Shown here: positions 11,466 to 32,418 of the stretch, piece by piece
Layout of the letters: each line of letters begins with the position of its first letter
Position numbering within the stretch: position 1 is the first letter of the stretch
DNA from: Planctomycetota bacterium
GTDB taxonomy: Bacteria > Planctomycetota > PLA2
DNA: 64,000 bases
Direction: 5' to 3'
Assembly: GCA_027297745.1 (NCBI GenBank)
Contig: JAPUHK010000024.1
Coordinates: 994 to 64,993 of the forward strand
Program-made: the position numbers and the translations under genes
The notes under the pieces: model-generated
Database searches by the model: none
Seen by the model: only the letters and a program-made list of their open reading frames with translations
Told to the model about the DNA's origin: nothing

Positions 11466-11469
11466 CGTC

Positions 11470-13181: not shown

Positions 13182-13188
13182 CTCGCGC

Positions 13189-14429: not shown

Positions 14430-14433
<4 letters not shown>
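13189..14433 (-). CDS. sufD: Fe-S cluster assembly protein SufD.
   Basis: Position between sufC and sufS. C-terminal SufBD signature (QLEIYADDVKCSHGATIGQLDEQALFYLRSRG). Confidence 0.85.
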
Positions 14434-15185
<752 letters not shown>

Positions 15186-15236
15186 GTCTTTCGTTCTTCC
15201 TCTTCGCGCTTTCGCGTTCGTTGTCTCAGGGTTTCT

Positions 15237-16700
<1,464 letters not shown>

Positions 16701-16702
16701 GC

Positions 16703-17140
16703 CTATTGCACCTTTTCGAGGGGGGGAAACGTGACCGTGGTGGCCATATCGCTGAGCGGGATGTTGCGCAGCGCGTCGCGCACGGCCTGGTTGATGCGCT
16801 GCCAGTTCGTGCGCACGGGGCAGCAGAACTCGATGCCGCACTCGTCGGTGGCGGTGTCGAGGCACTCGGTCAGCGCGATGGGGCCCTCGGTAGCTTCGAT
16901 GATCTCCGCCACCGTGATCTCCTCGGCGGGGCGCGGGAGGCTGTAGCCGCCCTTCACGCCGCGGTACGAGACCAGCAGCCCCGCGCGGCCGAGCGCCTTC
17001 AGCGTCTTGCTGACGGTGGGCAGCGGCAGGCCCGCGCACTTGGCCAGGTCGCGGGCGTTCTGGACCTTCTTCTCGGGCGCGCCCGCGAAGTGGGTCATCA
17101 GAACGATGGCGTAGTCGGCCTGTCGGGTGAGTCTCAGCAT
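16703..17140 (-). CDS. Rrf2-family transcriptional regulator (IscR/SufR-like) with Cys ligands for an Fe-S cluster.
   Basis: N-terminal winged HTH ([39 protein letters not shown]). Cys cluster [17 protein letters not shown]. It sits 2 nt upstream of sufB and is the first gene of the suf operon. Confidence 0.85.
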
Positions 17141-17154
17141 GGGGCCCTCTCAAA

Positions 17155-17175
17155 ACAGGACTCTCGCGGTCCTGT
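17155..17175. promoter_or_regulatory. Perfect 7-bp inverted repeat ACAGGAC-N7-GTCCTGT, 15 nt upstream of the rrf2 start codon; candidate autoregulatory operator of the Rrf2 regulator.
   Basis: Seen directly in the sequence. Rrf2 regulators such as IscR bind palindromic sites overlapping their own promoters. A second palindrome, AGAGTACTCT, lies at 17184-17193. Confidence 0.45.
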
Positions 17176-17370
17176 ATGAAGAAAGAGTACTCTACAGACC
17201 CTATTTAGCTCGGTCAATCTTTCGCGCCCGCTCCCCGTCGGTTGCTCCGATCCCCTGCAAATCGTTGATCGGTAGGGCGTTGCGCGCCTCGGGGCGCGGC
17301 GCGTCTGCCACGCCTCCAGGGGTCTACATGGTTGCTCTGCCGCCGGTCGCGGACTGGGGGTGCCCCATCG

Positions 17371-18525
17371 CTACCGGCCGGTGCGGAGGGCCTGGACGGC
17401 CTCAACGACCCGGTCGGCGGCACGGTCGACCTCGGCCTCAGTCGTCGGGCGGCCGATGCCGAAGCGAAGGGCTGCCAGGGCCAGCTGCCGCGAGATCCCC
17501 ATGGCCTGCAGCACGTGGGAGGGGTCGACCTTGTCGGAGTGGCAGGCGGAGCCCGTGGAGAGCGCCAGGTCGGGCAGCGCCAGCAGCAGCGACTCGCCGT
17601 CCACGCCGTCGAAGCAGACGTTGAGGTTGCCGGGCAGCCTGGCCTCGCGGCAGCCGTTCACGTGCACGCCGTCGAGCCGCTCGAGCAGCGCGCCTTCGAG
17701 CCGGTCGCGCAACCGCGCCGTGCGTTCCGCCTCCTGCCCGGGCTCCTGCCGGCACAGCTCGCAGGCCATGCCGAGACCGACGATGCCGGGCACGTTCGAG
17801 GTGCCGGAGCGCATGCCGCGTTCGTGTCCTCCGCCGTGCATCTGGATCGTGATCTTCACCTCGGGGTCACGGCGCCGCACGTATAGCGCGCCGCAGCCCT
17901 TCGGCCCGTAGAACTTGTGCGCCGTCAACGAAGCCAGGTGTACGTGGTCCTTGCGCACGTCGAAAGGCACGCGGCCGACGGCCTGCGCCGCGTCCGTGTG
18001 GAACAGGATGCCGCGCGCCTCGGCCAGCTGGCCGATCTTGCGGACGCGATGTAGCGTGCCGACCTCGTTGTTGGCGGCCATCAGCGTGATCAGGACCGTC
18101 TGCTCCGTGAGCGCCGCCTCCACGTCCTCGATCCGCACGCGCCCGTCGGGCCCGACGGGGACCCATGTCACCTGCGCGCCGCGCGCCTCGACCTCGGCGA
18201 GCGAATCGAGCACCGCCGAGTGCTCCGTGCGGGCGGAGACGATGTGCGTGCCCGCGCCGCCGCATGCCTCGAAAACGCCCTTGATGGCCAGGTTGTCCGA
18301 TTCCGTGGCACCGGAAGTGAAGACGATCTCACGGGCCTCCGCCCCGATCAGCGCCGCAACGCGCTTGCGGGCCACCTGGACCGCCTCCTCGGCGCGCCAG
18401 CCGTAGGCGTGCCGGCTGGCGGCGTTCCCGAAATCGGCCTCGAAGAAGGGCAGCATCTCCTTCAGCACGCGGGGGTCCACCGGCGTGGTCGCGTGGTAGT
18501 CGAGGTAGATAGGGGGCTCAGCCAC
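17371..18525 (-). CDS. iscS: Cysteine desulfurase of the IscS/NifS type (class I).
   Basis: PLP-Lys in LASLTAHKFYGPKG. Active-site loop SSGSACHS-like (LSTGSACHSDKV). GTG start preceded by AGGATAAGG. Confidence 0.88.
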   Translation of the reverse strand: MAEPPIYLDYHATTPVDPRVLKEMLPFFEADFGNAASRHAYGWRAEEAVQVARKRVAALIGAEAREIVFTSGATESDNLAIKGVFEACGGAGTHIVSARTEHSAVLDSLAEVEARGAQVTWVPVGPDGRVRIEDVEAALTEQTVLITLMAANNEVGTLHRVRKIGQLAEARGILFHTDAAQAVGRVPFDVRKDHVHLASLTAHKFYGPKGCGALYVRRRDPEVKITIQMHGGGHERGMRSGTSNVPGIVGLGMACELCRQEPGQEAERTARLRDRLEGALLERLDGVHVNGCREARLPGNLNVCFDGVDGESLLLALPDLALSTGSACHSDKVDPSHVLQAMGISRQLALAALRFGIGRPTTEAEVDRAADRVVEAVQALRTGR

Positions 18526-18596
18526 GGGGCCTTATCCTAGCTTTCCAGCTCTGAGTACTGCTCGGACAGCAGATATGGGGGATATACTGACTAGCA

Positions 18597-18932
18597 ATGT
18601 CCAAGCTGGCCATGACCGACAAGGCGGCGGAGAAGATCCTCGAGTTCGTCGCCAAAGACTCCAAGAAACTCCAGGAACCCGGCCTGCGCGTGCGCCTGAC
18701 CGGCGGCGGCTGCTCCGGCTACATGTATCAGTACTCGCTGGACGACGGCCCCGCCGAGGGCGACGAGGTTATCGAGCACAACGGCGCCAGGCTGTTCGTG
18801 GACAAGAAGTCGCTCTTCTTCTTGGCGAACTCGGTCGTGGACTACGCAGAGTCGCTCATGAACTCCGGGTTCCGCGTTCAGAACCCGAACGCCAAGGGCG
18901 CCTGCGGCTGCGGCGAGAGCGTCTCTTTCTAG
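18597..18932 (+). CDS. A-type Fe-S carrier protein (HesB/IscA/ErpA family).
   Basis: 111 aa. C-terminal CGCGESF signature. Conserved Cys in GGGCSG. Confidence 0.85.
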   Translation: MSKLAMTDKAAEKILEFVAKDSKKLQEPGLRVRLTGGGCSGYMYQYSLDDGPAEGDEVIEHNGARLFVDKKSLFFLANSVVDYAESLMNSGFRVQNPNAKGACGCGESVSF

Positions 18933-18960
18933 CTCTCAGCTGAGAGCTGACAGCTCTAGA
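18927..18960. terminator. Nested perfect palindromes between convergent genes; candidate bidirectional terminator.
   Basis: TCTAGCTCTCAGCTGAGAGCTGACAGCTCTAGA contains the 18-bp perfect palindrome AGCTCTCAGCTGAGAGCT. It spans the stop codons of the A-type carrier gene (+) and the divergent nuoB paralog (-). It is not followed by a classic T-tract. Confidence 0.4.
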
Positions 18961-19489
18961 TGAGCGTGTCCTTGACCTGCGCGACGAGCTCCGCGGCGGG
19001 CTGCTCCTCGGAGATCTTGTCTTGCAGCTCCATGAGGCCCTTGAGCACGGCCTCAGGGCGCGGCGGACAGCCCGAGATGTACAGGTCGACGGGTATCACC
19101 TCGTCGATGCCCTGGACCACGGGGTAGGAGCGGAACATGCCGCCCGAGGAGGCGCAGGCCCCCATGGCGATGCACCACTTGGGCTCCGACATCTGGTCCC
19201 ATACCCGCTTGACGACGTCGGCCATCTTGTAGGTCAAGGTGCCGGCTACGACCATCACGTCCGCCTGGCGCGGGCTGAAACGGGCCACCTCGGCCCCGAA
19301 GCGGGCCAGGTCGTAGCGCGAGCAGGCAACGGCCATGAACTCGATGGCGCAGCAGCTCAAGCCCATCGGGAGGGGCCAGAGGGAGTTCTTCCGGCTCCAG
19401 TTGATGAGCGCGTCGAGCCGTGAGAGGAAGAAACCGCCTTCCTGCTCGTGCTCGGTGACCTGGAGGTCCAGCGTGGTCGGGTTGGTCAT
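18956..19489 (-). CDS. Stand-alone NuoB-like protein (complex I 20-kDa / hydrogenase small-subunit family); second nuoB paralog.
   Basis: MTNPTTLDL... with the N2-cluster ligand pattern [13 protein letters not shown] and GCPP. It is divergent from nuoA and shares a 160-bp intergenic region with it. Start chosen at an internal ATG. Confidence 0.75.
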
Positions 19490-19650
19490 GGCCACGGAAA
19501 GTGTACCCCGCGACTCGTGCGGGGGCACCCTCGGGGGGCCGGGGCCGTCCGCGAATCTGGAAAGCCCTTGGTGCCACTGGAATAATCCCCTCTTTCGCGC
19601 CCAGGTATACGCACCCGATCGTGACACTCCAACTGCTCTTGGCCTCGACG

Positions 19651-20124
19651 ATGTTCCACAACTTGGGGAACGTGCTGATCTTCGCCCTGTTCGGCGGGGT
19701 CTTCGTCTGGGTGAACCTGTTCGTGATCGGCAAGCTCCTGCTGCGCCGGCCGCACAAGCCCAAGTTCGGCGAAAAGGAAGAGACCTACGAGTGCGGCGAG
19801 CCCACGATCGGCGACGCCTGGATCCGCTTCGACATCCGCTTCTACACGCTGGCGCTCATCTTTCTGATCTTCGACATCGAAGTGGCGCTGCTCTTCCCGT
19901 GGGCCGTGGCGTACGACGAGTTCATCGCCGCCGGCTTCGGGGCCGGCGCCTTTTTCGAAGTGCTGATCTTCCTGGTCGTGCTGGGCGTGGGCCTGGCCTA
20001 CGTCTGGTTGCGCAAGGACCTGAATTGGACCAGCACGCTGCCCGGACCGGCGGTGCCCGAGGAGGCGCTCGCAGGGGACGCAGTGGAAGAGAGCAAGCCC
20101 GCACAGGAGGAGGTCTCGGCATGA
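19651..20124 (+). CDS. nuoA: NADH-quinone oxidoreductase subunit A.
   Basis: Three TM helices. Conserved YECGEP and [12 protein letters not shown] motifs. A GTG alternative start lies at 19621. Confidence 0.85.
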
Positions 20125-21065
20125 CGCAGCAAGCACCCTCACGCCCGGGCCGCCCGGCGCACATGGCGCCGCCGGAGCGCTTCGACCCCGAGCTCGAGCG
20201 CACGATCCTCGTGACCAAAGCGGAGTGGCTGATCGACTGGAGCCGCAAGTCCGCCCTCTGGCCGCTCGGCTTCGGTCTCGCCTGCTGCGCGATCGAGATG
20301 ATCTCGACCGCTATGACGCGCTTCGACATCTCGCGTTTCGGCGCCGAGGTGTTCCGCGCCACGCCGCGTCAGGCCGACGTGATGATCGTGGCCGGCACGG
20401 TCACCCACAAGATGGCGCCCCGCGTGCGCCGGCTCTACGACCAGATGTCGGAGCCCAAGTGGGTGATCGCGATGGGCGCCTGCACCGTGGGCGGCGGGCC
20501 CTACTTCGTCTACGGCTACCACGTCGTGAAGGGCGTGGACAAGATCGTCCCCGTCGACATCTACCTGCCCGGCTGCCCGCCGCGCCCGGAAGCCCTGCTC
20601 GAGGCCATCATGCGCCTGCAGGAGCTGGTGCTCTCGCGCAGCAAGCGCATCCAGGGCAAGGATCCGCAGTACACGCCCCCCGAGCCCGGCTCGCGGCAGG
20701 CGGTAGCGGACAACGTCTCGCCCGCCGAGCCGTGGGAGACCGAGAAGGCGCACAAGTTCGACGACCCGAAGCGCGAGCGCGAGGCCCAGGTGCAGGCCGC
20801 GAAGGCGGAAGTCGCCAAGAAGCGCGCCGAGGCTGCTAAGAAGAAGGCCGAGGCCGAGGCCGCCGAGACCGAAGGGGCGCCGAAGCCGGAGGCAAAGGCG
20901 GCCGAAGAGCCCGCAGCGCCCCCGGCGCAACCGGCACCCGCCGAAGAGGGGCCTGCCGCCGAAGCGCCTCCCGCGGCAGAGCCGCAAGGGGAGCGCGAAG
21001 GCGACGCTCCCGAGCAGCCTGATGTGGGGGCCGGCGGCGACGAAGGAAAGGGCGCAGGCGAATGA
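20121..21065 (+). CDS. nuoB: NADH-quinone oxidoreductase subunit B with a roughly 130-aa Ala/Glu/Lys/Pro-rich C-terminal extension.
   Basis: [14 protein letters not shown] and PGCPP motifs. ATGA overlap with nuoA. The tail reads [50 protein letters not shown]. Confidence 0.88.
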
Positions 21066-21547
21066 CCGTGGCCGAGGCTCTGAAGCAAGCGCTGGGCGAG
21101 GCCGTCGAGGAAGTCGTCGACGAGGGGCCGAACCCCTTCGTGCGCGTCAAGGCTCAGAGCATCGTCGAAGCCTCGCGCGTGCTCAAGGACCAGTGCGGCG
21201 TCGAGATGCTGCACCTGATCAGCGGCGTCGACTACGCCGACCGCATGGAGGTCGTCTACCACTTCGCGACGCTGGGCGCCGCGGGCTCGTCGGATTCCGG
21301 CGTCCCCGCGTCGTTCCCCTGCGTGAAGGTGACGCTGCCGCGCGACAACCCGGTCGTGCCCACGCTGAGCGGCGAGTGGCGCTCCGCCAACTGGATGGAG
21401 CGCGAGACCTGGGACCTGCTCGGCATCCGCTTCGAAGGCCACCCGCATCACTACCGCATCCTTTGCCCCGAGGACTGGGTGGGGCACCCGCTGCGCAAGG
21501 ACTACGTGTTCCCCACCGAGTACCACGGGATCGACTGCACGGAATGA
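21062..21547 (+). CDS. nuoC: NADH-quinone oxidoreductase subunit C (30-kDa subunit).
   Basis: [17 protein letters not shown] motif. ATGA overlaps at both ends. Confidence 0.88.
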
Positions 21548-22716
21548 CCCCTGACATCAAGATCGACCACGACGAGCGGGCGGCTCCGGCGATCCCGCGC
21601 GACGTCCAGACCGAGGAGATGATCTTCAACCTCGGTCCCCAGCACCCGGCTACGCACGGCGTGCTGCGCGTGGTCGTGCGTACCGACGGCGAGATCGTGC
21701 TCGGTTGCCAGCCGCTGATCGGCAACCTGCACCGCTGCGCCGAGAAGATCATCGAGTCGCTCAGCTACGTGCAGGGCCTGCCCTACGTGGACCGCATGGA
21801 CTACCTGGGCTCGCTCAACAACGAGCTGGGCATCGCGCTGGTGGTGGAGAAGGCGGCGGGCATCGAGGTGCCCAAGCGCGGCCAGTACCTGCGCGTGATC
21901 ACCTGCGAGATCAACCGCGTCATCAGCCACCTGTTCAGCGCCGGGCAGTTCGGCCTCGACATGGGCGCTTTCACGCCCTTCCTGTACATGTTTCGCGAGC
22001 GGGAGGAGGGCATCCTGCTGCTCAACGAGATCACGGGCGGCCGGCTCCTGTACCACTACATCCGCTACGGGGGCGTCACGCGCGACGCGCCGGAGGGCTG
22101 GCTCGGGCGGGTCGTGAAGTGGTGCGACGTGGTCGACGGGCACCTCGACGAATACAACAACCTGCTCACGTACAACCGCATTTTCCTGAACCGCACCTGC
22201 GGCGTGGCCCTGTTGCAGAAGGATGTTTGTCTGAAATACGCCGCCACGGGGCCGATCCTGCGCGGCGCGGGCATAAAGCGCGATCTGCGCAAGGACATGC
22301 CCTACTCGAGCTACGAGGACTTCGACTTCGAGATCCCCGTGGGGCCCTTCGAGCACGGCGTGGCCGGCGACAGCTGGAACCGGCACCGCCAGCGGCTGTA
22401 CGAGATCGAGGAGAGCCTGAAGATCATCCGCCAGGCGTGCGCGAACCTCCCCGACGGCGACGTCGGCAACCGCAAGGTGACGCGCGCCTGGAAGGCGCCC
22501 CCGGGTGAGGCCTACGTGGCCACGGAAGCGCCGCGCGGCGAGCTGTCGTTCTATTTCATCTCCGACGGCGGCCGGAAACCGTACCGCATGAAGGCGCGCG
22601 GGCCGTCCTTCAACAACATCGCCGTTCTGGAGACGGAGGCGCGCGGCCTGATGCTGGCCGACCTGATCGCGCTGATCGGATCGGTCGACATCACGCTGGG
22701 GGAGGTGGACCGGTGA
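21544..22716 (+). CDS. nuoD: NADH-quinone oxidoreductase subunit D (49-kDa subunit).
   Basis: [14 protein letters not shown] and C-terminal RSYDPC-like region. 390 aa. Only the 3' part of the 564-aa track ORF is coding. Confidence 0.9.
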
Positions 22717-23813
22717 TCGCCGCGGCGCAGCCGGTCAGCACCGCCATCGCGGACTTCCTCGCGGAACTGGTCGGCATGCCGCCCAACTGGTTCTTCAGCG
22801 CGATCGCCATGCTGCTCGTGGCGACGGGGGTGCTGATGCTGGTGGTCACGCCCGTGGGGCTTGGCGGCGTGTACATCGAGCGCAAGTTCGCCGGGCGCAT
22901 GCAGAACCGCCGCGGCCCGAACCGTGTCGGTCCTTACGGGCTGCTGCAGACGCTGGCCGACGGCGTGAAGCTGCTGGCCAAAGAGGACATCATCGCGCCG
23001 AGCACGGATGCGCCGCTGTTCCGGCTGGCGCCCTACGTGGTGTTCATCGGCGCCTTCACCGGGTTCGTGGTGCTGCCGTACGCGCCGGGCATCGTGGCCG
23101 GGCCGCTGGACGTCGGCGTGCTCCTCTTCCTGGCGTTGATCGCCTTCGAGACGATCGGCATCGTCATGGCGGGCTGGTCCAGCAACAACAAGTGGAGCCT
23201 GCTCGGCGGCATGCGCGAGGTGGCGCAGGTCGTCAGTTACGAGTTGCCGCTCGGCATCGCCGCCATGTGCCCCGTGATCGCGGCCGGCACGATGTCCTTG
23301 AACGGCATCACGGATTACCAGGGCGGCGGCGGCATCTTCGGCTGGCTGATCCTGCGTAACGGGTACTGGGCTGTGGTGATGGTCCCGGCCTTCCTGATCT
23401 TCTATGTCTCCGGCCTGGCCGCCGCCAAGCGCGCGCCCTTCGACCTTCCGGAGGCGGAGTCGGAGCTGGTCGCCGGCTTCCACACCGAGTACTCGGGCAT
23501 GCGCTTCGGCATGTTCTTCCTGCCCGAGTACGCGCTGATGCTGTCCATATCGGGTGTGACCAGCGTGCTGTTCCTCGGCGGCTATCACGATCCCTTCGGG
23601 CTGAGCGGCCCCGGCGGCACGTTCCACGACGTGTGGTGGTGGGGCCTTCTGTGGTTCTTCCTGAAGACCACGTTCCTGTTCCTGAGTCAGATCTGCCTGC
23701 GTTGGACGCTGCCGCGCATGCGCATCGACCAGGTTATGTACCTCTGCTACAAGGTGCTGCTTCCCGCAAGCCTGGCGTGCCTGGTCGGGACCGCAGCGCT
23801 GAGGTTGCTGTAG
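22713..23813 (+). CDS. nuoH: NADH-quinone oxidoreductase subunit H. It directly follows nuoD; no nuoE, nuoF or nuoG is present.
   Basis: Polytopic. Conserved RKFAGRMQNRRGPNRVGPYGLLQ and EYSGMRFG motifs. Confidence 0.9.
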   Translation: MIAAAQPVSTAIADFLAELVGMPPNWFFSAIAMLLVATGVLMLVVTPVGLGGVYIERKFAGRMQNRRGPNRVGPYGLLQTLADGVKLLAKEDIIAPSTDAPLFRLAPYVVFIGAFTGFVVLPYAPGIVAGPLDVGVLLFLALIAFETIGIVMAGWSSNNKWSLLGGMREVAQVVSYELPLGIAAMCPVIAAGTMSLNGITDYQGGGGIFGWLILRNGYWAVVMVPAFLIFYVSGLAAAKRAPFDLPEAESELVAGFHTEYSGMRFGMFFLPEYALMLSISGVTSVLFLGGYHDPFGLSGPGGTFHDVWWWGLLWFFLKTTFLFLSQICLRWTLPRMRIDQVMYLCYKVLLPASLACLVGTAALRLL

Positions 23814-23815
23814 TC

Positions 23816-24283
23816 ATGAAAAACTGGTTCGCACGCATCTGGCACGGTCTCAAGACGACGCTGATCGGGCTGAGCATCACGGTGCCCTACCTGTTCCGCA
23901 AGCCCTACACGCTGCAGTACCCCGAAGAGGTGCCCGACATCCCGGAGACGGAGCGCGGGCTGCACAACTTCGAGATCGACAAGTGCATCGCGTGCTACCA
24001 GTGCGCCAAGATCTGCCCCGTCGACTGCATCGCGATCGAGGACGAGATCAAGGGCAAGAACGCGGTACTGCTCAAGTTCGAGATCGACTACACGAAGTGC
24101 CTGTTCTGCGCGCTGTGCTGCGAGCCCTGCCCGACGGAGTGCATCCTCATGGGGCCCACGTTCGACCTCGTCGGCTACACGCGGGACGAGGTGATCATCG
24201 ACTACGCGGATCGCGAGAATCCGCGCACCTGGAGCGCGGGGGAGCAGATCCCCTATCCGATCGCGTCGTTCGCGAGGAAGTGA
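23816..24283 (+). CDS. nuoI: NADH-quinone oxidoreductase subunit I (2x[4Fe-4S]).
   Basis: CIACYQCAKICP and CLFCALCCEPCP ferredoxin motifs. Confidence 0.9.
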   Translation: MKNWFARIWHGLKTTLIGLSITVPYLFRKPYTLQYPEEVPDIPETERGLHNFEIDKCIACYQCAKICPVDCIAIEDEIKGKNAVLLKFEIDYTKCLFCALCCEPCPTECILMGPTFDLVGYTRDEVIIDYADRENPRTWSAGEQIPYPIASFARK

Positions 24284-24287
24284 TCCG

Positions 24288-24785
24288 ATGAGCCCGGAGC
24301 CGCTTCTCTTCTGGATCTTCGCCTCCGTGTGCGTCGTCGGCGGCCTCATGGCCGTGCTGCTGCCGCGCATCGTGCACGCCGTCTTCAGCCTGTTCCTGTG
24401 CTTCTGTGGCGTGGCCGCGATCTACGCGGTGGCGGGCGCCGACTTCCTGGCCGTCGCGCAGCTCGTGATCTACGTCGGCGGCGTGATCATCCTGTTCAGC
24501 TTCGGCATCCTGCTCACGGGCCGCACGGCGACCTCGCTGGGCCCGAAGGAGGTGCGCAACCGCCCGTTCGGCGTGGCGCTGGGCGCGGCGCTGTTCCTCG
24601 GGCTCATGTCCGCCATCTCCGCCGGCGGCTTCAAGGTGGGCACAGCGGACGTCGGCGAGCCCACGACCGAGAGCATCGGCAAGCTGTTGCTCGGCGACTA
24701 CATCATCGCCTTCGAGTTCGCCTCGGTGTTGCTGCTCGTGGCGCTGGTGGGGGCCGCCTTCCTGGTGCGGAGGACGCAGACGTGA
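24288..24785 (+). CDS. nuoJ: NADH-quinone oxidoreductase subunit J.
   Basis: 165 aa. Five TM helices. Position in the operon. Confidence 0.8.
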   Translation: MSPEPLLFWIFASVCVVGGLMAVLLPRIVHAVFSLFLCFCGVAAIYAVAGADFLAVAQLVIYVGGVIILFSFGILLTGRTATSLGPKEVRNRPFGVALGAALFLGLMSAISAGGFKVGTADVGEPTTESIGKLLLGDYIIAFEFASVLLLVALVGAAFLVRRTQT

Positions 24786-25087
24786 GCATCAGTCTCTACC
24801 ACTACCTCGGCCTCGGCGCAGCGCTGTTCGCGATCGGCGTGATCGGCGTGGTCACGCGCCGCAACGCGATCGGCCTGCTGATCGGCGTCGAGCTGATCCT
24901 CAACGCCGCCAACATCAACCTGGTCGGCTTCAGCCGTTTCAGCGGAAAGCTGGAGCCCCAGGTCTTCGCCCTGTTCGTCATCGTCCTGGCCGCCGCGGAG
25001 GCGGCTGTGGCCCTGGCCATCGTTCTGCAGCTGTTCGACAAGCGCAAGGACGTGGACGTGGACCGCGCCAGCGCGCTCAAGGGGTGA
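24782..25087 (+). CDS. nuoK: NADH-quinone oxidoreductase subunit K.
   Basis: GTG start overlapping the nuoJ stop codon (GTGA). About 100 aa with three TM helices. Conserved GVELILNAANINL. Confidence 0.82.
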   Translation: MSISLYHYLGLGAALFAIGVIGVVTRRNAIGLLIGVELILNAANINLVGFSRFSGKLEPQVFALFVIVLAAAEAAVALAIVLQLFDKRKDVDVDRASALKG

Positions 25088-25097
25088 CGCCGAAGTC

Positions 25098-27056
25098 ATG
25101 ATGCACGCCCTTCCCTCCTACGCCGTCTGGATCGTGCTGGCGCCCGCGCTGGCCGCGCTCTTGCAGAACTTTTGCGGCAAGCTGCTGCCGCGCAAGGGCG
25201 ACTGGCTCGTCGTGGGCGGCATGGGCGTCTCGCTCGCGCTGTCGCTGATGGTGCTGATGGAGTGGAGGGCCCTCGATCCGGGCCACTACTTCGAAGGCAG
25301 CGTCACCTGGTTCCAGTTGACGGGCGGCATCTCGTTCTCCGTCGGCATCGTGATCGACGGCCTGACCGCGGCCATGCTGATCGTGGTCACGCTGGTCTCG
25401 CTGCTCGTGTTCGTGTTCTCGATGGGCTACATGAAGGGCGACCGGCACTACGACCGCTTCTTCTTCTGGCTCTCGTTCTTCAGCACCTCGATGCTGATCC
25501 TGGTGGTGGCCGACAACCTGCTGCTGCTGTTCGTCGGCTGGGAGCTGGTGGGGCTTTGCAGCTACAAGCTGATCGGCTTCTGGGGCCAGGACCTGGCCAA
25601 CGCGGAGGCGGCCAAGAAGGCCTTCATCACCACCCGCGTGGGCGACGTCGGGATGCTGATCGGCATCCTCATGATGTACAAGGCCTGCGGCACGCTCTCG
25701 TTGCAGGGCGTGTTCGCGCAGGTGCAGGCCGGAGCGATCCAGGGCAGCGCGCTGACCTGGGCCGGCATCGCGCTGTTCCTCGGCGCGGTCGGCAAGTCGG
25801 CGCAGTTCCCGCTGCACGTCTGGCTGCCGGACGCCATGGCGGGCCCGACGCCTGTCAGCGCGCTGATCCACGCGGCCACGATGGTGGCGGCGGGGGTCTA
25901 CTTCGCGGCGCGCATGTTCCCGATCTTCACGCCGCAGGCGCTGTACTTCATCGCCTGGACGGGCGGTGTGACCGCGCTGCTGGCGGCGCTCATCGCGGTC
26001 ACGCAGACGGACATAAAGAAGGTGCTGGCCTACTCCACGATCAGCCAGCTCGGCTACATGATCCTCGGCGTCGGCGTGGGCGCTCCGTGGGCGGCCATGT
26101 TCCACCTGTGCACGCACGCCATGTTCAAGGCCTGCCTGTTCCTCGGCTCCGGCTCCGTGATCCACGCCATGCATCACACCCAGGAGCTCGAGGACATGGG
26201 CGGCCTGCGCAAGAAGATGCCGGTCACCTTCTGGACCTTCGTGGTCAGCACGCTCGCGCTGGCCGGCATCCCCTTGTTCAGCGGCTTCATGTCGAAGGAC
26301 GCAATCCTGTTCGAGGCGTTGCACAGCGGGCAGACGGCGCTGTTCGCGATCGGGCTCGGTGCCGCCTTCCTGACCGCTTTCTACATGACGCGCATGCTGT
26401 GGCTGTGCTTCATGGGCGAGCCGCGCAACCGGGAGAAGCACGACCACGCGCACGAGTCGCCCGTGAGCATGACGCTGCCGCTGGTCGTGCTGGCACTGCT
26501 CTCGATCGGGATCTTCTGGGGCGGGTTCGCGGACGACTATTTCACGACGCCCGCCTACCACGCGGACTACCCGCAGACGGCGGAGGTGGCGGCGGCTTAT
26601 GCGCCAGCGGGAGAGGTGCGCGCTCATCCACACCACCCGGTGTGGTTCCTGCTGCTGGCGAGCGCGATGGGTCTCGGCGGCATCGCGCTGGGCATCGCGC
26701 TGTTCCGCTCCGGCAAGCGGGACCAGGACACGGTGCTCTTGCCCGAAGGGCTGCACCGCACGGCGAAGAACAAGTACTACCTCGACGACCTCTACCTGGG
26801 CTGGGGCTTCGTCGGGCTCGGTGACACGCTCAGCCGTTGGAGCCGCGTGGCCGACGACCGCGCGGTCGACGGCGCGGTCAACGGTGTCGGCAGCGCGGGC
26901 GTGACCGTCGCCGAGATCAGCGGGGACGCGGACCAGGTCATCGTGGACGGCGCTGTCAACCTGGTCGCGGACGCCACGGACGCGGTAGGCGGCGTGGCCA
27001 GTAGCGCGCAGACGGGGCGCATTCGGAACTACCTGGGAGCAGCACGACGGTCGTGA
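25098..27056 (+). CDS. nuoL: NADH-quinone oxidoreductase subunit L (antiporter-like).
   Basis: 652 aa, polytopic. WLPDAMAGPTPVSALIHAATMVAAGVY motif. Confidence 0.9.
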   Translation: MMHALPSYAVWIVLAPALAALLQNFCGKLLPRKGDWLVVGGMGVSLALSLMVLMEWRALDPGHYFEGSVTWFQLTGGISFSVGIVIDGLTAAMLIVVTLVSLLVFVFSMGYMKGDRHYDRFFFWLSFFSTSMLILVVADNLLLLFVGWELVGLCSYKLIGFWGQDLANAEAAKKAFITTRVGDVGMLIGILMMYKACGTLSLQGVFAQVQAGAIQGSALTWAGIALFLGAVGKSAQFPLHVWLPDAMAGPTPVSALIHAATMVAAGVYFAARMFPIFTPQALYFIAWTGGVTALLAALIAVTQTDIKKVLAYSTISQLGYMILGVGVGAPWAAMFHLCTHAMFKACLFLGSGSVIHAMHHTQELEDMGGLRKKMPVTFWTFVVSTLALAGIPLFSGFMSKDAILFEALHSGQTALFAIGLGAAFLTAFYMTRMLWLCFMGEPRNREKHDHAHESPVSMTLPLVVLALLSIGIFWGGFADDYFTTPAYHADYPQTAEVAAAYAPAGEVRAHPHHPVWFLLLASAMGLGGIALGIALFRSGKRDQDTVLLPEGLHRTAKNKYYLDDLYLGWGFVGLGDTLSRWSRVADDRAVDGAVNGVGSAGVTVAEISGDADQVIVDGAVNLVADATDAVGGVASSAQTGRIRNYLGAARRS

Positions 27057-27073
27057 TTCTGCTTTAGGAAACG

Positions 27074-28624
27074 ATGAACGAACTCACGTATGCGATCTTC
27101 CTCCCGCTGGTCGGGATGCTGGCGGTGCTCTTGACCAACAAGGAGAAGCCGCAGCAGGCGCGCGTGGTCGGCTTCCTGTTCACGCTCGTCACCTTCGGGC
27201 TGTGCACCCTGGTGGCGCTGCAGTGCTTCAACGCGGGCGACGTGGACGGCTACCACTACCGCGTCCAGGCAGTGTGGATCGACCTCGGCGGCAGCTTCCA
27301 GGTGCACTACTCGATCGGCGTGGACGGCCTCAGCGGCATGCTGATCTTCCTGACGGGGCTGCTGGGCGTGTGCGCCGCGCTGGCGTCGTGGAACATCAAG
27401 CAGGGCACGCGCGGCTACTGGGCCATGTTCCTGCTCTTGCACACGGGCGTGATCGGCACCTTCGCCTCGCTGGACCTGTTCCTGTTCTACGTCTTCTGGG
27501 AGATCGTGCTCCTGCCGATGTACTTCCTGATCGGCGTGTGGGGCGGCCCGCGGCGCAGGTACGCGGCGATCAAGTTCTTCCTGTACACGCTGTTCGGCTC
27601 GGTCTTCCTGCTGGCCGGCATCCTGGTCACCTACTTCGCGCTGACGGCCACGGGGTCCGGCTTCGCCGGCAACCCATTCAGCATTCCAGAGATCACGGCC
27701 TACGCGAGGGTGACGGACAACATCATGGCGCCCTTCGGCGAGAGCGCGCACACGATCGCGACGCTCGTGTTCTGGGGCCTGTTCGTCGCCTTCGCGATCA
27801 AGGTGCCAGTCTTCCCGTTCCACACGTGGTTGCCGGACGCCCACGTCGAGGCGCCGACGCCCATCTCCGTGATCCTGGCGGGCATCCTGCTGAAGCTCGG
27901 CGCGTACGGCATGCTGCGCATCGGGTTCCCGTTCTTCCCAAAGATCTTGCACGAGATGGCCTTCTATCTCGGCGTGCTGGGAATGATCAACATCATCTAC
28001 GGCGCGCTGGTGGCCATGGCGCAGACCGACTTCAAGCGGCTCGTGGCCTACTCGTCGGTCTCGCACATGGGCTTCGTCATCCTCGGCTTCGCCGCGATGA
28101 CGCCGGAATCGCTGAACGGCGCGATCCTGATGATGTTCAACCACGGCACGATCAGCGGCCTGTTGTTCCTGGTGGTGGGCGTCGTGTACGACCGCGCGCA
28201 TCACCGCGACCTGGGACGTTTCGGCGGGCTGATGTGGAACATGCCGATCTACGCCGCAATCAGCGGCGTGGCAATCTTCGCCTCGCTCGGCCTGCCCGGC
28301 TTGAGCGGTTTCATCGGCGAGATACTGACCCTCCTCGGGTCCTTCAAGACGACCTTCTACGAGCACGCCGGCCTGATCACGGTCGTGTGCACGATCGGCC
28401 TGGTGTTGACCGCGGCCTACTACCTGCGGGCGCTGCAGCGCGTCTTTTTGGGCGAGACCAACCCTGAGTGCGAGTCGTTCCCCGACGTCGACACGCGCGA
28501 GATCGGCTCGATGGTGCCGCTCCTGGTGCCGACGATCGTCTTCGGCATCTATCCCGCGCCGCTGATCGACCTGATCCAGGGTCCCGTGAGTAGCCTCGTG
28601 CTGATGGTGAAGAGTCTGGGCTGA
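27074..28624 (+). CDS. nuoM: NADH-quinone oxidoreductase subunit M.
   Basis: 516 aa. WLPDAHVEAPTPISVILAGILLKLGAYG motif. Confidence 0.9.
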   Translation: MNELTYAIFLPLVGMLAVLLTNKEKPQQARVVGFLFTLVTFGLCTLVALQCFNAGDVDGYHYRVQAVWIDLGGSFQVHYSIGVDGLSGMLIFLTGLLGVCAALASWNIKQGTRGYWAMFLLLHTGVIGTFASLDLFLFYVFWEIVLLPMYFLIGVWGGPRRRYAAIKFFLYTLFGSVFLLAGILVTYFALTATGSGFAGNPFSIPEITAYARVTDNIMAPFGESAHTIATLVFWGLFVAFAIKVPVFPFHTWLPDAHVEAPTPISVILAGILLKLGAYGMLRIGFPFFPKILHEMAFYLGVLGMINIIYGALVAMAQTDFKRLVAYSSVSHMGFVILGFAAMTPESLNGAILMMFNHGTISGLLFLVVGVVYDRAHHRDLGRFGGLMWNMPIYAAISGVAIFASLGLPGLSGFIGEILTLLGSFKTTFYEHAGLITVVCTIGLVLTAAYYLRALQRVFLGETNPECESFPDVDTREIGSMVPLLVPTIVFGIYPAPLIDLIQGPVSSLVLMVKSLG

Positions 28625-30183
28625 TGCTGCTGGGTGCGGAAGCCTTTATCCCCGACGTCTCGGCGTTGTTCAGCCACTTCGGCGCGGAAGTCGTGCTGGC
28701 GTTGGGGATCCCCTTGCTCCTCGTGGCGGACCTGTTCACCCGCCGCAACAAGGAGTCGGTCACCGGCGCTCTCTCGCTGGTGCTGTTGACCGTCGCCCTC
28801 GTGCTCGGGCTCTGGCAGGACTCCTCCAGCAGCGTCGGTCTGACGAGCCTCTTGCGCGCGGACGGGCTGGCCAAGGGCTTCCGCGTGATCGCGCTGGCCA
28901 GCGGCGTGATCACCGCGGTGGCAGCACTGCGCGGCGGTGACGCGGTGCGCCACCGGACGGAGTTCTTCGTGCTCCTGATGGGGGCCGTACTCGGCGCCTG
29001 CCTCACGGCGGCCGCGAACGAGATGGCCATGCTGTACCTCGCGATCGAGACGCTGTCGATCGCCGGGTACCTGCTGGCCGGCTTCAAGCGGCGCGATCCG
29101 CAGGGCTCGGAGGCCGCGCTGAAGTACATCATCTTCGGCGCCATCTCCTCCGGCATGATGCTGTACGGCCTGACCTTGCTGTACGGCTTCGGCGGGACGA
29201 GCCTCTTGACCACGCCGCCGGGCGCCCCTGAAGGCACCGTTTCGCTGCAGTCCTATCTGCAAGAGAACGCCTCGGCGCTCGCCATGAAGCCCGCCTTCAT
29301 CGCCGCCGTGGTGCTGGTGTTCGCGGGCCTGGCCTACAAGATCGCCGCGGCGCCGTTCCATTTCTGGTGCCCCGACGTCTACCAGGGCGCGCCCACCTCG
29401 GTGGCGGGTTTCCTGGCCGTTGCCGGAAAGGGCGCCGGGCTGGCCGCCTTCATCCGCATCGTGCAGGCCGTCACCGGCGGCGCCGGCGACCACATCACGG
29501 ACCTCTTGGCCAGGCACAACGACGTGATCCGCACGGTGCTGATCGGCATGTCGATCGCGACCATGACGATCGGGAACGTAGCCGCGCTGCGCCAGCGCAA
29601 CGCCAAGCGGATTCTGGCCTACAGCGCCATCGCGCACGCGGGCTACATCCTGATGGGTCTCACGGTCACCAGCCGCGCGGGCGCGACGGCCATGCTCTTC
29701 TACATGGGCGTCTACGTGTTCATGACGTTCGGCGCCTTCTTCATGGTGGCGCTCGTGGAGCGCGAAAAGGGTAGCTGCGACCTGTCGGCCTTCGAGGGGC
29801 TCGGGTTCCGTGCGCCCTTCTTCGCCGTGTCCTTCGCGATCGTGCTGATCAGCCTGACGGGCCTGCCGCCGACCGGCGGCTTTTGGGCCAAGGTGTTCCT
29901 GTTCGAGGGCGTGTTCAGCTACGGCGGCGCGCACTCCTCGAGCCTGTACCTGTGGTTCGGCGTGATCGGCCTGCTCAACGGGGTCATCTCGCTGGTCTAC
30001 TACGCCCGCTTCCTGAAGGCCATGTACCTGGCCGACCCGGAGCACAACACCGGCTCCGGGCTGGAGCTCGGCCTGGCGGACAAGAGCATGGTGTTCGCCA
30101 TGACGCTGCCGCAGCTGGTGCTCGGCGTGATGTTCGCTGGGCTCTACGAGACGGCGCAGCTTCTGGTCGTGGATCTCTTCTGA
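28624..30183 (+). CDS. nuoN: NADH-quinone oxidoreductase subunit N.
   Basis: 519 aa. WCPDVYQGAPTSVAGFLAVAGKGAG motif. TGATG overlap with nuoM. Confidence 0.88.
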   Translation: MLLGAEAFIPDVSALFSHFGAEVVLALGIPLLLVADLFTRRNKESVTGALSLVLLTVALVLGLWQDSSSSVGLTSLLRADGLAKGFRVIALASGVITAVAALRGGDAVRHRTEFFVLLMGAVLGACLTAAANEMAMLYLAIETLSIAGYLLAGFKRRDPQGSEAALKYIIFGAISSGMMLYGLTLLYGFGGTSLLTTPPGAPEGTVSLQSYLQENASALAMKPAFIAAVVLVFAGLAYKIAAAPFHFWCPDVYQGAPTSVAGFLAVAGKGAGLAAFIRIVQAVTGGAGDHITDLLARHNDVIRTVLIGMSIATMTIGNVAALRQRNAKRILAYSAIAHAGYILMGLTVTSRAGATAMLFYMGVYVFMTFGAFFMVALVEREKGSCDLSAFEGLGFRAPFFAVSFAIVLISLTGLPPTGGFWAKVFLFEGVFSYGGAHSSSLYLWFGVIGLLNGVISLVYYARFLKAMYLADPEHNTGSGLELGLADKSMVFAMTLPQLVLGVMFAGLYETAQLLVVDLF

Positions 30184-30674
30184 TGAATCGCGAGGCACGC
30201 ATCACCTACTTGAACCGCGTACTGGCGGCGACGTCGAACTCGCTCTTGCAGTACATCTCTGTGGCCACGCCGTACGTGCCGCCCGAGTGCGAGGACCAGA
30301 TGGAAGAGGTCACGCGCCTGATCGACGAGGAAGCGCAGCAGGTCGCGCGCATCGTGGATCTGATCGAGGAGCGCGACGGCGTGCCGTCGGCGGGCATCTT
30401 CCCGTTCTGGAACGTCGACCTGAACTACCTCGACTTCCGCTTCCTGGCGCGCTTCGCCGCACAGAAGCAGGGCGAGATCGTGGACGGGCTCGAGCGCGAC
30501 CTCGACAACCTGCGCGGCGACCCCGACGCCTTCACCGCGGTGGGGGAGATCCTGAAAGAGAAGCGCGCGCACCTCGACGTGCTGCGCTCGTTCGCCGGCA
30601 TGGATCAGCCGGAACCCGAAGCCGCCGCGGAAGAAGCTCCCGCCGAAGCGCCCGCCGAACCCGCAGGCGAGTAG
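30184..30674 (+). CDS. Hypothetical acidic protein co-transcribed with nuoN; possible accessory subunit.
   Basis: Its ATG immediately follows the nuoN stop codon (TGATG). 163 aa with no TM helix. The Pro/Ala/Glu tail resembles the NuoB tail. No family recognised. Confidence 0.5.
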
Positions 30675-30682: not shown

Positions 30683-32320
30683 CTAGCCTGACCCTGGCGG
30701 CTTGATGCCGGCCCACCGCTCCAGGTAGGGCAGCACGACCTCACTCACCTCTTCCCGCGGGCGGCTGCCGAGGTAGCGTGCCGCCTCGCGCGAGCCCGCC
30801 TCGGGGTCGATCTGCACGAGCGCGCCGATGGCGAAGAACTGATCCCCGGCCCTCGGATGGGCGAGGAAGTCGAGCAGGATCCGTTCCGCCCTTGGGCCGC
30901 CCATCTTGCCCAGCGCGCCCAGAAGATACGGCCGCACGCCGTCCCACCCGGGGCGCAGCAGCTTGTCCTCGAAGTGAGGCGCGCCCGCGGGCTCCCGCAG
31001 TTCCCCAAGCGCGCCGGCGGCGCTATAGAAGAGACCGGCGTCCTCCGACTCCGCGACGAGGTCGAGCAGGTAGCGGCGCGTCTCCGGCGTGTCCGCAGCG
31101 CCCATGGCGCGCAGGATCGTGTAGCGCGCGGAGCGGGGGAATGCCGGATCACCGGCCGCCGTGATGAGGTGCGCCTCGTACCCGGGCGACCAGGCCTCGC
31201 GCAGGAGGCGCTCGAACCACGCGCCTTGCCTGCCTCCGCGCAGCAAGGCCAGCAGCGCGAGCAAGCCCTGCTCGCCGTGGCCGTTCAGCTTCTCGATGGC
31301 TTCGAGCGCCTCCTCGTCCAGCTTGTCTTGCTGATGCTGGTTGCGCACGGCCTCCTCTGCCTCGAGCGCTGCCTGGAGCGCCGGCGCGGGGACCTTCAAG
31401 GCCGCCGCGGCGCGCTGAAGCTTCGAGTCCCGCGTGCGCGGGCGGCCGCGCTGCTTGGCCGCTTGCTGTTTTGCAACCGGCCTCTCAGCCGAGGCGGCAC
31501 GCGCGGCGGCGAGCTGCTCGACTAGAACACGTTCGCGCTCCCGCGCCGCCTCCAGTTCCCGGTGCAGGTCAGGGCCGTGCGGCGCGCGCGCGACCCGCTG
31601 CGCCGGCTCCGCGTCCGACCTTCCGGGCAACGCGGCGCCAATGCCCACGCCGACGATTCCCGTGGCGGCGACGGCGGCGGTAACGATGGCGGCGGTCTTG
31701 TACTTCATGACTTCTCCAAGGATGAGCTGGGACGACGCGTGCGCGCAGTCGGCCAGGAACCAGGGCACCGCGAGCAGGGGAAGGGCGAGCCAGGGTGCGA
31801 GCGAGCCGAGCAGGAGCGTGCGCGCACGCTGGAGCCGCTTCTTGACGGCGGACTGCGTAATGCCGAGCAGCCCGGCTACCTCGTTTGTCGTGAGCCCTTC
31901 GAAGTAGTGCAGCACGACCGGGTCGCGGTAGCCTGCCGCAAGCCGGTCCACGCCGTCGCGCAGGCGACGGAACTCCTCGGCGCGCATGGCCGCCGCCGCG
32001 GGCGTCGGCGCCTGCGGCAAGTGTGCGAGCCGCCGGGAAAGCTCGTGTTGCCGCCGGTGTTGCGCCTTGTGCCGGTACGCGATGCGCACGACCGCCGTGA
32101 CGAGCCAGGGCATGACCGGGGCGTCGAGCGGCCCCCCGCGTTTGTGCAGTAGCGAGAGGTAGGCGGTGTGGACCGCGTCCTCAGCCTCGTCCGGCGAGCC
32201 GATGCGGCGCGCCACCGCGAGCAGCTTCGGCCGCGTCCGGCGCACGACCTCCTCGGCCGCCTCCTCGTCCGCGTCCCGCAGGTAGCGGTCGACGAGATCT
32301 TCCAGCGTCTCCCTGGCCAT
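30683..32320 (-). CDS. ECF sigma factor fused to a transmembrane segment and a C-terminal HEAT/armadillo-like repeat domain.
   Basis: N-terminal sigma regions 2 and 4 (DAVHTAYLSLLHKRGG..., LTTNEVAGLLGITQSAVKKRLQRART). A TM helix (AAIVTAAVAATGIVGVGIGAAL). A coiled coil and HEAT-like repeats. It is a single uninterrupted 545-aa frame. Confidence 0.65.
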   Translation of the reverse strand: MARETLEDLVDRYLRDADEEAAEEVVRRTRPKLLAVARRIGSPDEAEDAVHTAYLSLLHKRGGPLDAPVMPWLVTAVVRIAYRHKAQHRRQHELSRRLAHLPQAPTPAAAAMRAEEFRRLRDGVDRLAAGYRDPVVLHYFEGLTTNEVAGLLGITQSAVKKRLQRARTLLLGSLAPWLALPLLAVPWFLADCAHASSQLILGEVMKYKTAAIVTAAVAATGIVGVGIGAALPGRSDAEPAQRVARAPHGPDLHRELEAARERERVLVEQLAAARAASAERPVAKQQAAKQRGRPRTRDSKLQRAAAALKVPAPALQAALEAEEAVRNQHQQDKLDEEALEAIEKLNGHGEQGLLALLALLRGGRQGAWFERLLREAWSPGYEAHLITAAGDPAFPRSARYTILRAMGAADTPETRRYLLDLVAESEDAGLFYSAAGALGELREPAGAPHFEDKLLRPGWDGVRPYLLGALGKMGGPRAERILLDFLAHPRAGDQFFAIGALVQIDPEAGSREAARYLGSRPREEVSEVVLPYLERWAGIKPPGSG

Positions 32321-32418
32321 GGCACCCCCATAGTGCCTGCCGCGGGCGCGCGGTGACACACGTTAAGGGTCGCCTCCCCGGGCCGGACGCCGCGAGGCGA
32401 AGTCCAAGGGGCTAGGAG

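Follow-up and report, generated by a model that had tools for sequence, protein, structure and literature searches.

An eleven-gene nuo operon without nuoEFG

We analyzed a 64,000-nt stretch of DNA from a Planctomycetota bacterium (assembly GCA_027297745.1, contig JAPUHK010000024.1, positions 994–64,993), referred to here as the window, with a focus on a cluster of genes for a complex I-like enzyme. On the plus strand, positions 19651–30674 hold 12 genes: nuoA, B, C, D, H, I, J, K, L, M, and N, followed by a gene for a small acidic protein, here called orfX. A stand-alone second nuoB gene (nuoB2) is transcribed divergently from nuoA, and the NuoB encoded in the operon carries a long C-terminal extension. 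Because the G+C content of the window is ~68%, lists of open reading frames (ORFs) are rich in spurious frames, and the genes were therefore set by homology, start-codon context, and G+C content at third codon positions (GC3). All eleven Nuo subunits (A, B, C, D, and H–N) were identified with Pfam or NCBIfam models, and their genes are contiguous. The features of the operon, in window coordinates, are listed below.

19558–19586, plus strand: promoter-like site (TGGAAA, 17-nt spacer, TG-extended AATAAT), ~65 nt upstream of nuoA; a consensus match only
19651–20124, plus strand: nuoA, 157 aa, with an acidic C-terminal extension of ~30 aa (Pfam PF00507, 6.3e-30)
20121–21065, plus strand: nuoB, whole gene, 314 aa
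20121–20651, plus strand: core of nuoB, residues 1–177, with the N2 cysteines (PF01058, 5.3e-29; NF005012, 238 bits against a cut-off of 116)
20652–21065, plus strand: C-terminal extension of NuoB (alignment with the NuoB of L001, L004, L006, L009, and L013; GC3 0.81)
21062–21547, plus strand: nuoC (Pfam PF00329, 6.8e-38)
21544–22716, plus strand: nuoD, quinone-reductase type, without the NiFe CxxC (PF00346, 6.7e-85; NF004739, 411 bits against a cut-off of 360)
22713–23813, plus strand: nuoH (Pfam PF00146, 9.8e-110)
23816–24283, plus strand: nuoI, ferredoxin-type subunit with two [4Fe-4S] clusters (Fer4-family matches; 76–80% identity to nuoI of related operons)
24288–24785, plus strand: nuoJ (Pfam PF00499, 6.2e-33)
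24782–25087, plus strand: nuoK (Pfam PF00420, 7.3e-29)
25098–27056, plus strand: nuoL (NCBIfam NF005141, 645 bits against a cut-off of 556)
27074–28624, plus strand: nuoM, one copy (TIGR01972, 559 bits against a cut-off of 264)
28624–30183, plus strand: nuoN (TIGR01770, 340.5 bits against a cut-off of 332.6)
30183–30674, plus strand: orfX, 163 aa, predicted acidic ferritin-fold four-helix bundle with a degenerate ferroxidase site and a disordered tail at residues 143–163

Between nuoA and orfX, neighboring genes overlap by 4 or 1 nt at six junctions, and the widest intergenic gap is 17 nt. The overlap between nuoD and nuoH is 4 nt, which leaves no space there for the genes of NuoE, NuoF, and NuoG. 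A Pfam scan that extended beyond the operon to ~40 further ORFs with high GC3, i.e., all the sizeable ones in the 64 kb, identified no homologues of these three subunits (PF01257, PF01512, and NuoG-type domains) among the ORFs of the window, and nuoE, nuoF, and nuoG were also not found in the fetched flanks (up to 10 kb) of related loci. An earlier note on this DNA, made from the sequence alone, had described an eleven-gene nuo operon in which nuoD leads directly to nuoH and nuoEFG are missing. The gene map and the Pfam and NCBIfam assignments confirm that description, and the immediate flanks within the window, where the note had considered that nuoEFG might lie, contain none of these genes.

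The same order, from a long nuoB through nuoC, nuoD, and nuoH to nuoN without nuoEFG, was found in seven related loci (L001, L004, L005, L006, L009, L013, and L022), and the eleven-gene order is kept across at least eight genomes. The close relatives of the operon that bear organism names are all metagenome-assembled genomes (MAGs) of Planctomycetota or Planctomycetaceae, and none is from a cultured organism. The promoter-like site is the sole sigma-70-like match within 18400–19800 and lies in the 161-nt intergenic region between nuoB2 and nuoA, of which the TGGAAA/AATAAT block is the best-conserved part in L013 and L022. No intrinsic terminator was found around nuoB2 and nuoA. At the other end, orfX stops 8 nt from a convergent gene encoding an extracytoplasmic function (ECF) sigma factor (30683–32359, minus strand), which leaves no space for a terminator there.

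Enzyme class and electron donor

The NuoB of the operon retains all four N2 cysteines (ACCAIE...GAC...GCPP). NuoD contains the motifs GPQHPATHG and PYVDRMDY and an LGEVDR C-terminus and lacks the NiFe-type CxxC pairs; in Nqo4 of Thermus thermophilus, the two motifs hold the quinone-binding His and Tyr, and the residue roles are assigned here by comparison with Nqo4 and Nqo6. Each of nuoL, nuoM, and nuoN is present once. Judged from these sequence features, the locus encodes a predicted 11-subunit complex I-like quinone reductase and proton pump (NuoA–D and NuoH–N) without the N-module. The EFG-less eleven-gene architecture is itself already known (PMC3144371, PMC11238625), and the 11-subunit form is, according to Moparthi and Hagerhall, the probable ancestral form (PMC3144371). 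Such enzymes are present in many anaerobes, and their electron donor is an acknowledged open question (PMC11238625, PMC3144371); a systematic hunt for a partner that all of them share was unsuccessful (PMC3144371, restated in PMC11238625). The present locus shares with the published eleven-gene systems the same genes in one operon, the direct succession of nuoD and nuoH, the absence of nuoEFG, the quinone-reductase type of NuoB and NuoD, and the open question of the donor. The predicted ferritin-fold twelfth cistron, the ~137-aa NuoB extension, part of which is a conserved module, and a canonical-type NuoB encoded beside IscA distinguish it from the known 11-subunit form.

Several other enzyme classes were considered and rejected. 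For the F420H2 dehydrogenase Fpo, the scores fell far below the NCBIfam cut-offs (FpoD, NF040602, 315 against 600 bits; FpoL, NF040617, 433 against 1050), and no FpoF-like gene was found in Pfam scans of the ORFs of the window. The models for cyanobacterial-type NDH-1 also scored below their cut-offs (NF005649, 342 against 583 bits; NF005626, 505 against 963), and the operon has no Ndh-specific genes. The likeness to Fpo or F420-type enzymes and to cyanobacterial NDH-1 that the earlier note had drawn is thus not supported as membership in either class. A 2M-type complex I was ruled out by the single nuoM, and a membrane-bound hydrogenase by the lack of NiFe motifs in NuoD. The cyanobacterial and chloroplast NDH-1 resembles the present system in lacking NuoEFG, and it takes electrons from ferredoxin via the extra small subunits NdhS, NdhV, and NdhO. 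However, homologues of NdhL–O, NdhS, and NdhV are not present at this locus, which, unlike that of the cyanobacterial enzyme, is a single contiguous operon.

By analogy with other 11-subunit enzymes, the most probable source of electrons would be a low-potential protein, for example ferredoxin, that docks directly on the NuoI/NuoB/NuoCD face. A gene for pyruvate:ferredoxin oxidoreductase (POR/PFOR) lies at 16808–18534 of L022, a related metagenome contig, ~7 kb from its eleven-gene nuo operon, and hints weakly that metabolism in this clade is ferredoxin-based.

A gene for a predicted ferritin-fold protein follows nuoN

The ATG of orfX is at position 30183, and its A is shared with the TGA stop codon of nuoN (TGATG), giving a 1-nt overlap. 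With this overlap, nuoN and orfX are coupled translationally and are not merely adjacent. The GC3 of the orfX core is 0.93, compared with 0.72 for the antisense ORF, which is a coding-type composition. The earlier note had reported a trailing acidic gene of 163 aa that abuts the nuoN stop codon and starts at 30184; its existence and acidity (isoelectric point [pI] 4.3) hold, whereas the start lies one nucleotide earlier and overlaps the stop codon.

A search of 5.8 billion proteins placed the close relatives of orfX in 25 clusters, of which the named ones are planctomycetal. When 185,579 species-representative genomes were scanned for the motifs of the subfamily, six genomes were recovered, five of them MAGs of Planctomycetota or Planctomycetaceae and one labeled only as an unclassified "uncultured bacterium." In all seven distinct related loci that were long enough to judge (L001/L008, L003, L004, L005, L006, L007, and L009), an orfX homologue directly follows nuoN. 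All seven have collinear nuoB-C-D-H-I-J-K-L-M-N genes and lack nuoEFG, and the 1-nt overlap between nuoN and orfX recurs in three. Across the related loci, identity to the window is ~59–87% for the Nuo core and 46–49% for orfX, indicating that orfX evolves faster and is nevertheless retained. The conservation of the trailing gene, on which the earlier note had made its proposal depend, is therefore borne out by synteny in related genomes.

A profile search of 1.84 billion cluster representatives returned two members of the close subfamily (E <1e-30), 93 at E ≤1e-10, and 650 at E ≤1e-3. The distant family members are 140–170 residues long and share 25–33% identity with orfX. Genomic context was recovered for five of them (L017 with P0029, L018, L019, L020, and L021 with P0300), and in every case its immediate upstream neighbor is a nuoN homologue, whose product is 37–46% identical to the NuoN of the window. 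The link between the ferritin-like gene and nuoN therefore reaches well beyond the close clade, and nuoN is the upstream neighbor in 12 of 12 contexts (seven close and five distant). The downstream neighbors vary: an ECF sigma factor gene in the window, a gene for a PCMT-family protein-L-isoaspartate O-methyltransferase in L001, L003, and L004, and TatD in L021. The PCMT genes are on the same strand as the orfX homologue that they follow (L001, 10688–11305; L003, 6588–7316; L004, 10535–11269), and the window has no such gene directly after orfX. Some distant family members are longer, at 346–441 aa (P0047, P0064, P0088, P0091, P0092, and P0139), with the ferritin-like domain at the N-terminus; the remaining 200–280 residues had no Pfam match in the two proteins tested (P0047 and P0064).

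The AlphaFold2 model of orfX had a predicted local distance difference test score (pLDDT) of 83.9, and its structural matches were proteins with the ferritin/Dps/bacterioferritin (Bfr) fold, the best being a mini-bacterioferritin (PDB 9qq4/9qq5). That protein is an active 12-mer, and the paper describing it mentions no nuoN-type context (PMC13168243). Against the Pfam family Ferritin (PF00210), orfX itself scored 19.6 bits, under the cut-off of 24.5, whereas its relatives P0026, P0029, and P0036 exceeded the cut-off (30.8, 30.9, and 25.0 bits, respectively). No NCBIfam model matched orfX. On the predicted structure, then, orfX is a ferritin-fold four-helix bundle. The trailing product, which the earlier note had called unknown, can now be given a fold by profile and structure prediction, together with a degenerate di-iron site.

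The ligand positions were mapped with HMMER alignments to bacterioferritins and with a family-wide census. Relative to the di-iron ligands of Escherichia coli Bfr (E18, E51, H54, E94, E127, and H130), the correspondence is as follows.

Bfr E18: T17 in orfX
Bfr E51: E50 in orfX
Bfr H54: Q53 in orfX (Thr in most relatives)
Bfr E94: a variable position in orfX (residue 94)
Bfr E127: K127 in orfX
Bfr H130: H130 in orfX

Only two of the six ligands (E50 and H130) are thus kept, and the change from Glu to Lys at 127 is nearly invariant in the orfX subfamily. Across 153 distant representatives, the ligand positions were highly variable, and few sequences had a nearly complete E/ExxH/ExxH pattern. Such variability is the pattern expected when an enzyme fold has been recruited as a structural part, and at the sequence level the orfX family looks like one that descends from a di-iron protein and no longer depends on the metal site. 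The readings of orfX as a haem-binding bacterioferritin or a Dps-type ferroxidase were rejected, since Met is missing from the Bfr haem position and a conserved His pair is lacking. In comparison with mini-bacterioferritin, Bfr, and Dps (PF00210; 9qq4/9qq5, PMC13168243), orfX differs in its identity of only ~14–15%, its two of six ligands, and the missing haem-ligand Met, and a strict linkage to nuoN has not been reported for ferritins.

The most strongly conserved part of orfX is the invariant stretch FP[YF]WNVDLNYLDxRFLARFA, which forms the B–C loop and the start of helix C; EKRAH in helix D is also invariant. The protein is acidic (pI 4.5 for the core) and has no hydrophobic or transmembrane segment, and residues 143–163 form a disordered C-terminal tail. 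Most close homologues (P0004–P0023) end in a basic tail with (E/D)(S/P)Q(N/H)VPRP(V/A)R or QHVPRAW, and the orfX of the window and its nearest relatives (P0001–P0003) have instead an acidic PEPEAAAEEAPAE tail.

The C-terminal extension of NuoB

The long Ala/Glu/Lys/Pro-rich tail on the operon NuoB, put at roughly 130 aa in the earlier note, was also recovered, with a length of ~137 aa (NuoB residues 178–314; Ala 33, Glu 24, Pro 20, Lys 13, and Gly 12). When it was aligned with the NuoB of five relatives (L001, L004, L006, L009, and L013; the annotated lengths of the relatives are 289–363 aa), three parts could be distinguished: a conserved proximal module of ~50 residues (SRSKRLNxxDPxYTPPEKGSRQAVxDGLSPAEPWxTEKA...), a Lys/Ala/Glu-rich stretch, and a variable, repeat-like, disordered region rich in Pro, Ala, Glu, Lys, and Thr, exemplified by the PKAEPKADA repeats in L001. 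The conserved proximal module indicates that the extension is a feature of the lineage and more than low-complexity drift. The extension may cover the surface of the Q-module that is otherwise contacted by NuoG and would be left bare without NuoEFG. NuoA (19651–20124), like NuoB, has a non-canonical acidic extension at its C-terminus, which comprises ~30 residues.

NuoB2 and its Fe-S assembly neighborhood

The stand-alone nuoB2 gene and the Fe-S assembly genes of the window are the following.

11151–17149, minus strand: Rrf2-SufB-SufC-SufD-SufS-SufU-SufT operon (Pfam; SufU read from the translation), outside the nuo transcript
17371–18525, minus strand: IscS/NifS-type cysteine desulfurase (nearest NCBIfam models are IscS-type, 1.5e-147, under the equivalog cut-offs)
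18597–18932, plus strand: IscA/ErpA-type Fe-S carrier (TIGR00049, 110.7 bits against a cut-off of 58.8)
18956–19489, minus strand: nuoB2, stand-alone canonical-type NuoB paralogue, 177 aa, with four N2 Cys (PF01058, 2.3e-29; NF011390, 298.4 bits against a cut-off of 281)
32419–33537, minus strand: Mrp/ApbC (NUBPL-type) P-loop NTPase for Fe-S transfer (PF10609, 1.7e-95)

NuoB2 also matched TIGR01957 (232 bits, cut-off 142.7) and contains the motifs SCCAIE, GAC, and GCPP; it shares 57% identity with the operon NuoB over the core of the latter. Its orthologues are 78–87% identical and adjoin IscA in five of five genomes (L011, L013, L015, and L022, in addition to the window), a degree of conservation that argues for a continuing fit to a NuoD/NuoH-type partner. 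Two arrangements were observed. L013 and L022 have that of the window, with nuoB2 divergent from nuoA of the eleven-gene operon and beside IscA and IscS. In L011 and L015, NuoB2 is encoded within the co-directional series MBL-IscA-NuoB2-Mrp(ParA/NUBPL-type)-Rrf2-SufB-SufC-SufD-SufS-NifU-SufT, in which the spacing of the genes flanking NuoB2 ranges from a 4-nt overlap to a 9-nt gap and Mrp directly follows NuoB2; in L011, whose contig also holds L004, NuoB2 lies ~25 kb from nuoA. Comparison of these contexts shows that the constant neighbor of NuoB2 is IscA with the Fe-S assembly genes, not nuoA. The divergence of a stand-alone nuoB from nuoA, pointed out in the earlier note, is accordingly real in the window, but nuoA is not its primary partner in relatives.

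The nearest outgroups of NuoB2, at 72–77% identity, are the NuoB proteins of complete nuoABCDEFGHIJK operons (L016 and L023), indicating that NuoB2 descends from the canonical 14-subunit lineage and was kept as a single gene in this clade. In a Prosthecobacter MAG (L014, 7533–9122), a NuoB that is 69% identical to NuoB2 is encoded in a short cluster, between a gene for a 123-aa product and nuoC; the genes that come next are unrelated, which indicates that nuo genes are split in some Verrucomicrobiota. The Fe-S gene set (Rrf2-SufBCDS-SufU-SufT, IscS, IscA, and the NUBPL-type Mrp) flanks the nuo operon of the window on both sides (11151–18932 and 32419–33537), and in related MAGs (L001, L004, L011, and L015) it lies within ~8–25 kb of the nuo operon in a different order.

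NuoB2 may be an alternative subunit bearing cluster N2 that can replace the operon NuoB and is made together with the Fe-S machinery; alternatively, it may be a dedicated client or intermediate of Fe-S insertion. In mitochondria, NUBPL/Ind1 is required for the insertion of Fe-S clusters into complex I, and this makes the IscA-NuoB-Mrp gene string suggestive. The common element is an Mrp/NUBPL-type (Mrp/ApbC) NTPase and IscA encoded beside an N2-bearing NuoB, the homologue of PSST/NDUFS7. The systems differ in that the present one is bacterial, that the link comes from genome context, and that the NuoB concerned is a stand-alone paralogue rather than the subunit of the operon.

Other genes in the window

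The sigma factor gene that converges with orfX (30683–32359, minus strand) encodes an ECF-type sigma domain (approximately residues 30–190) and a C-terminal region of ~370 residues that matched no domain and appears to contain a membrane segment. Two very large multihaem c-type cytochromes are encoded on the minus strand at 53567–56503 and 59078–61285, with 11 and 23 CxxCH motifs, respectively, and matches to the Pfam cytochrome c7/c3 and MtrC/MtrF-like domains. Large ORFs between and beyond them (57291–59177 and 61153–63393) had no Pfam matches, and the region at 53567–63393 may be an extracellular or periplasmic electron-transfer module. A DUF488 gene with an overlapping radical-SAM gene (43442–45077) and a gene of the DUF1572/DinB family (48186–48734) appear to be unrelated to the nuo locus.

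Proposed roles and alternative explanations

We favor, with a probability of roughly 55%, a reading in which the locus encodes an 11-subunit complex I with three lineage-specific elaborations: orfX as a twelfth cistron acting through contacts, the NuoB extension, and NuoB2. In this scheme, orfX would be translated from nuoN by stop–start coupling as a soluble, acidic, ferritin-fold protein that has lost its di-iron site and would act through protein–protein contacts, for which the B–C loop is the likely surface. Gene linkage and the predicted structure suggest that it would serve as a supernumerary subunit or as a stabilizing or assembly factor of the complex. The nearest bacterial parallel is Nqo15 of Thermus thermophilus, a frataxin-like, non-core protein bound to complex I, for which a role in stabilizing the enzyme or aiding the regeneration of Fe-S clusters has been proposed (PMC3144371). 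Like orfX, Nqo15 is small and soluble and has a fold known from iron metabolism, but that fold is frataxin rather than a ferritin four-helix bundle. Moreover, a structure proves the association of Nqo15, which sits where the N- and Q-modules of a 14-subunit enzyme meet, whereas the association of orfX is read from gene linkage.

Several points weigh against the favored reading. The co-transcription of orfX with the nuo genes, from which its association with the complex is proposed, would also fit a co-regulated soluble protein. In a few distant family members, a nearly complete E/ExxH/ExxH pattern persists, so an ancestral or alternative function could be catalytic. The five contexts recovered from ~650 distant clusters are a small and perhaps biased sample, and the stretches are too short to show whether EFG are present. 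The tail of orfX is not conserved, being acidic here and basic with a QxVPRPVR motif in many relatives. The electron donor is assigned entirely by analogy, and nuoEFG may lie elsewhere in the genome, as may a second, nuoB-less complex that NuoB2 might serve.

This last point leads to the view that the enzyme is a conventional NADH dehydrogenase that draws its NuoE, NuoF, and NuoG from genes at another site in the genome, with NuoB2 as the leftover of a second canonical complex I or in its service. The NuoB2 outgroups in full operons show that the wider lineage has or had a canonical enzyme, and the nuoB-nuoC pair of Prosthecobacter (L014) illustrates that split nuo clusters exist. However, nuoE, nuoF, and nuoG were absent from the 64-kb window and the fetched flanks of relatives, a stand-alone NuoB2 was seen, among all the fetched loci, only on contigs with an 11-subunit-type nuo operon, and the eleven-gene order is widely kept, which together make this explanation unlikely. 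Another view treats orfX as a working iron-handling or oxidant-scavenging protein of the mini-ferritin, Dps, or rubrerythrin-like kind, co-expressed with the Fe-S-rich complex so as to provide its clusters with iron or shield them, without being a subunit. Its fold, the activity of its best structural match (PMC13168243), the position of the operon among SUF, IscS, IscA, and Mrp genes, the distant relatives that retain E/ExxH/ExxH, and the label of bacterioferritin that JGI gives to a few homologues are all consistent with such a function. Yet throughout the close subfamily, four of the six ferroxidase ligands have been exchanged (the Glu at 127 for Lys, among others), the ligand positions vary widely among the distant representatives, neither the Bfr haem Met nor a Dps-type His pair is present, and conservation peaks in a surface loop instead of the bundle core; we consider it improbable that orfX is such a protein.

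It is still more doubtful that orfX, possibly together with the NuoB tail, is an electron-donor adaptor that brings ferredoxin or another carrier to the Q-module, in the manner of NdhS and NdhV in cyanobacterial NDH-1. The missing N-module, the open question of the donor of 11-subunit enzymes (PMC3144371, PMC11238625), the strict linkage of orfX to nuoN, its invariant exposed loop, and the PFOR gene ~7 kb from the nuo operon in L022 would all suit an adaptor. On the other hand, orfX has no similarity to NdhS, NdhV, or NdhO and no redox-cofactor motif, its acidic core would not favor the binding of ferredoxins, which are typically acidic, and the charge of its tail differs between relatives. 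It is very improbable that orfX is a hitch-hiker with no functional tie to the operon that it ends: the lack of a family annotation and its lower identity than that of the Nuo proteins would be in keeping with this, but it follows nuoN in all 12 contexts over a range of 25–50% identity, often with a stop–start overlap, whereas the downstream neighbors differ between loci.

A bolder form of the favored reading is possible, and we advance it tentatively. Here, orfX would be an unrecognized twelfth subunit or an obligatory assembly factor. Its family, comprising several hundred clusters, would as a rule be linked to nuoN in uncultured bacteria, and orfX would go back to a di-iron enzyme that was co-opted as a structural component, much as supernumerary subunits were recruited in mitochondria. 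Taken with the NuoB2 that is embedded in an IscA-NuoB2-Mrp-SUF operon, orfX would be a sign of a dedicated pathway for the supply or repair of the Fe-S clusters, notably N2, of a complex I without the N-module.

Significance

No publication was found on a ferritin-like protein linked to nuoN or to complex I, and searches for nuoEFG in Planctomycetes, or for complex I, nuoB, or Fe-S assembly in Planctomycetes, returned nothing on these features; Spero et al. 2015 (PMC4453560) do not mention Planctomycetes. The nuoN-coupled ferritin-like gene, the conserved NuoB extension, and the Fe-S-linked NuoB2 therefore seem not to have been described. They are relevant to two questions still under debate: which partners the 11-subunit enzyme has, and how Fe-S clusters are inserted into bacterial complex I. 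If orfX were merely a co-expressed iron-handling protein, the locus would be an ordinary member of a known enzyme class. As a gene that travels with nuoN over a wide range of sequence, however, orfX may be an accessory subunit that arose from a ferritin through loss of the catalytic site, and the linkage of NuoB2 to IscA, an Mrp/NUBPL-type ATPase, and SUF would mirror in bacteria the mitochondrial requirement for NUBPL. If either were confirmed, these planctomycetal loci would provide a new class of bacterial supernumerary subunit and a genetic system for the maturation of cluster N2.

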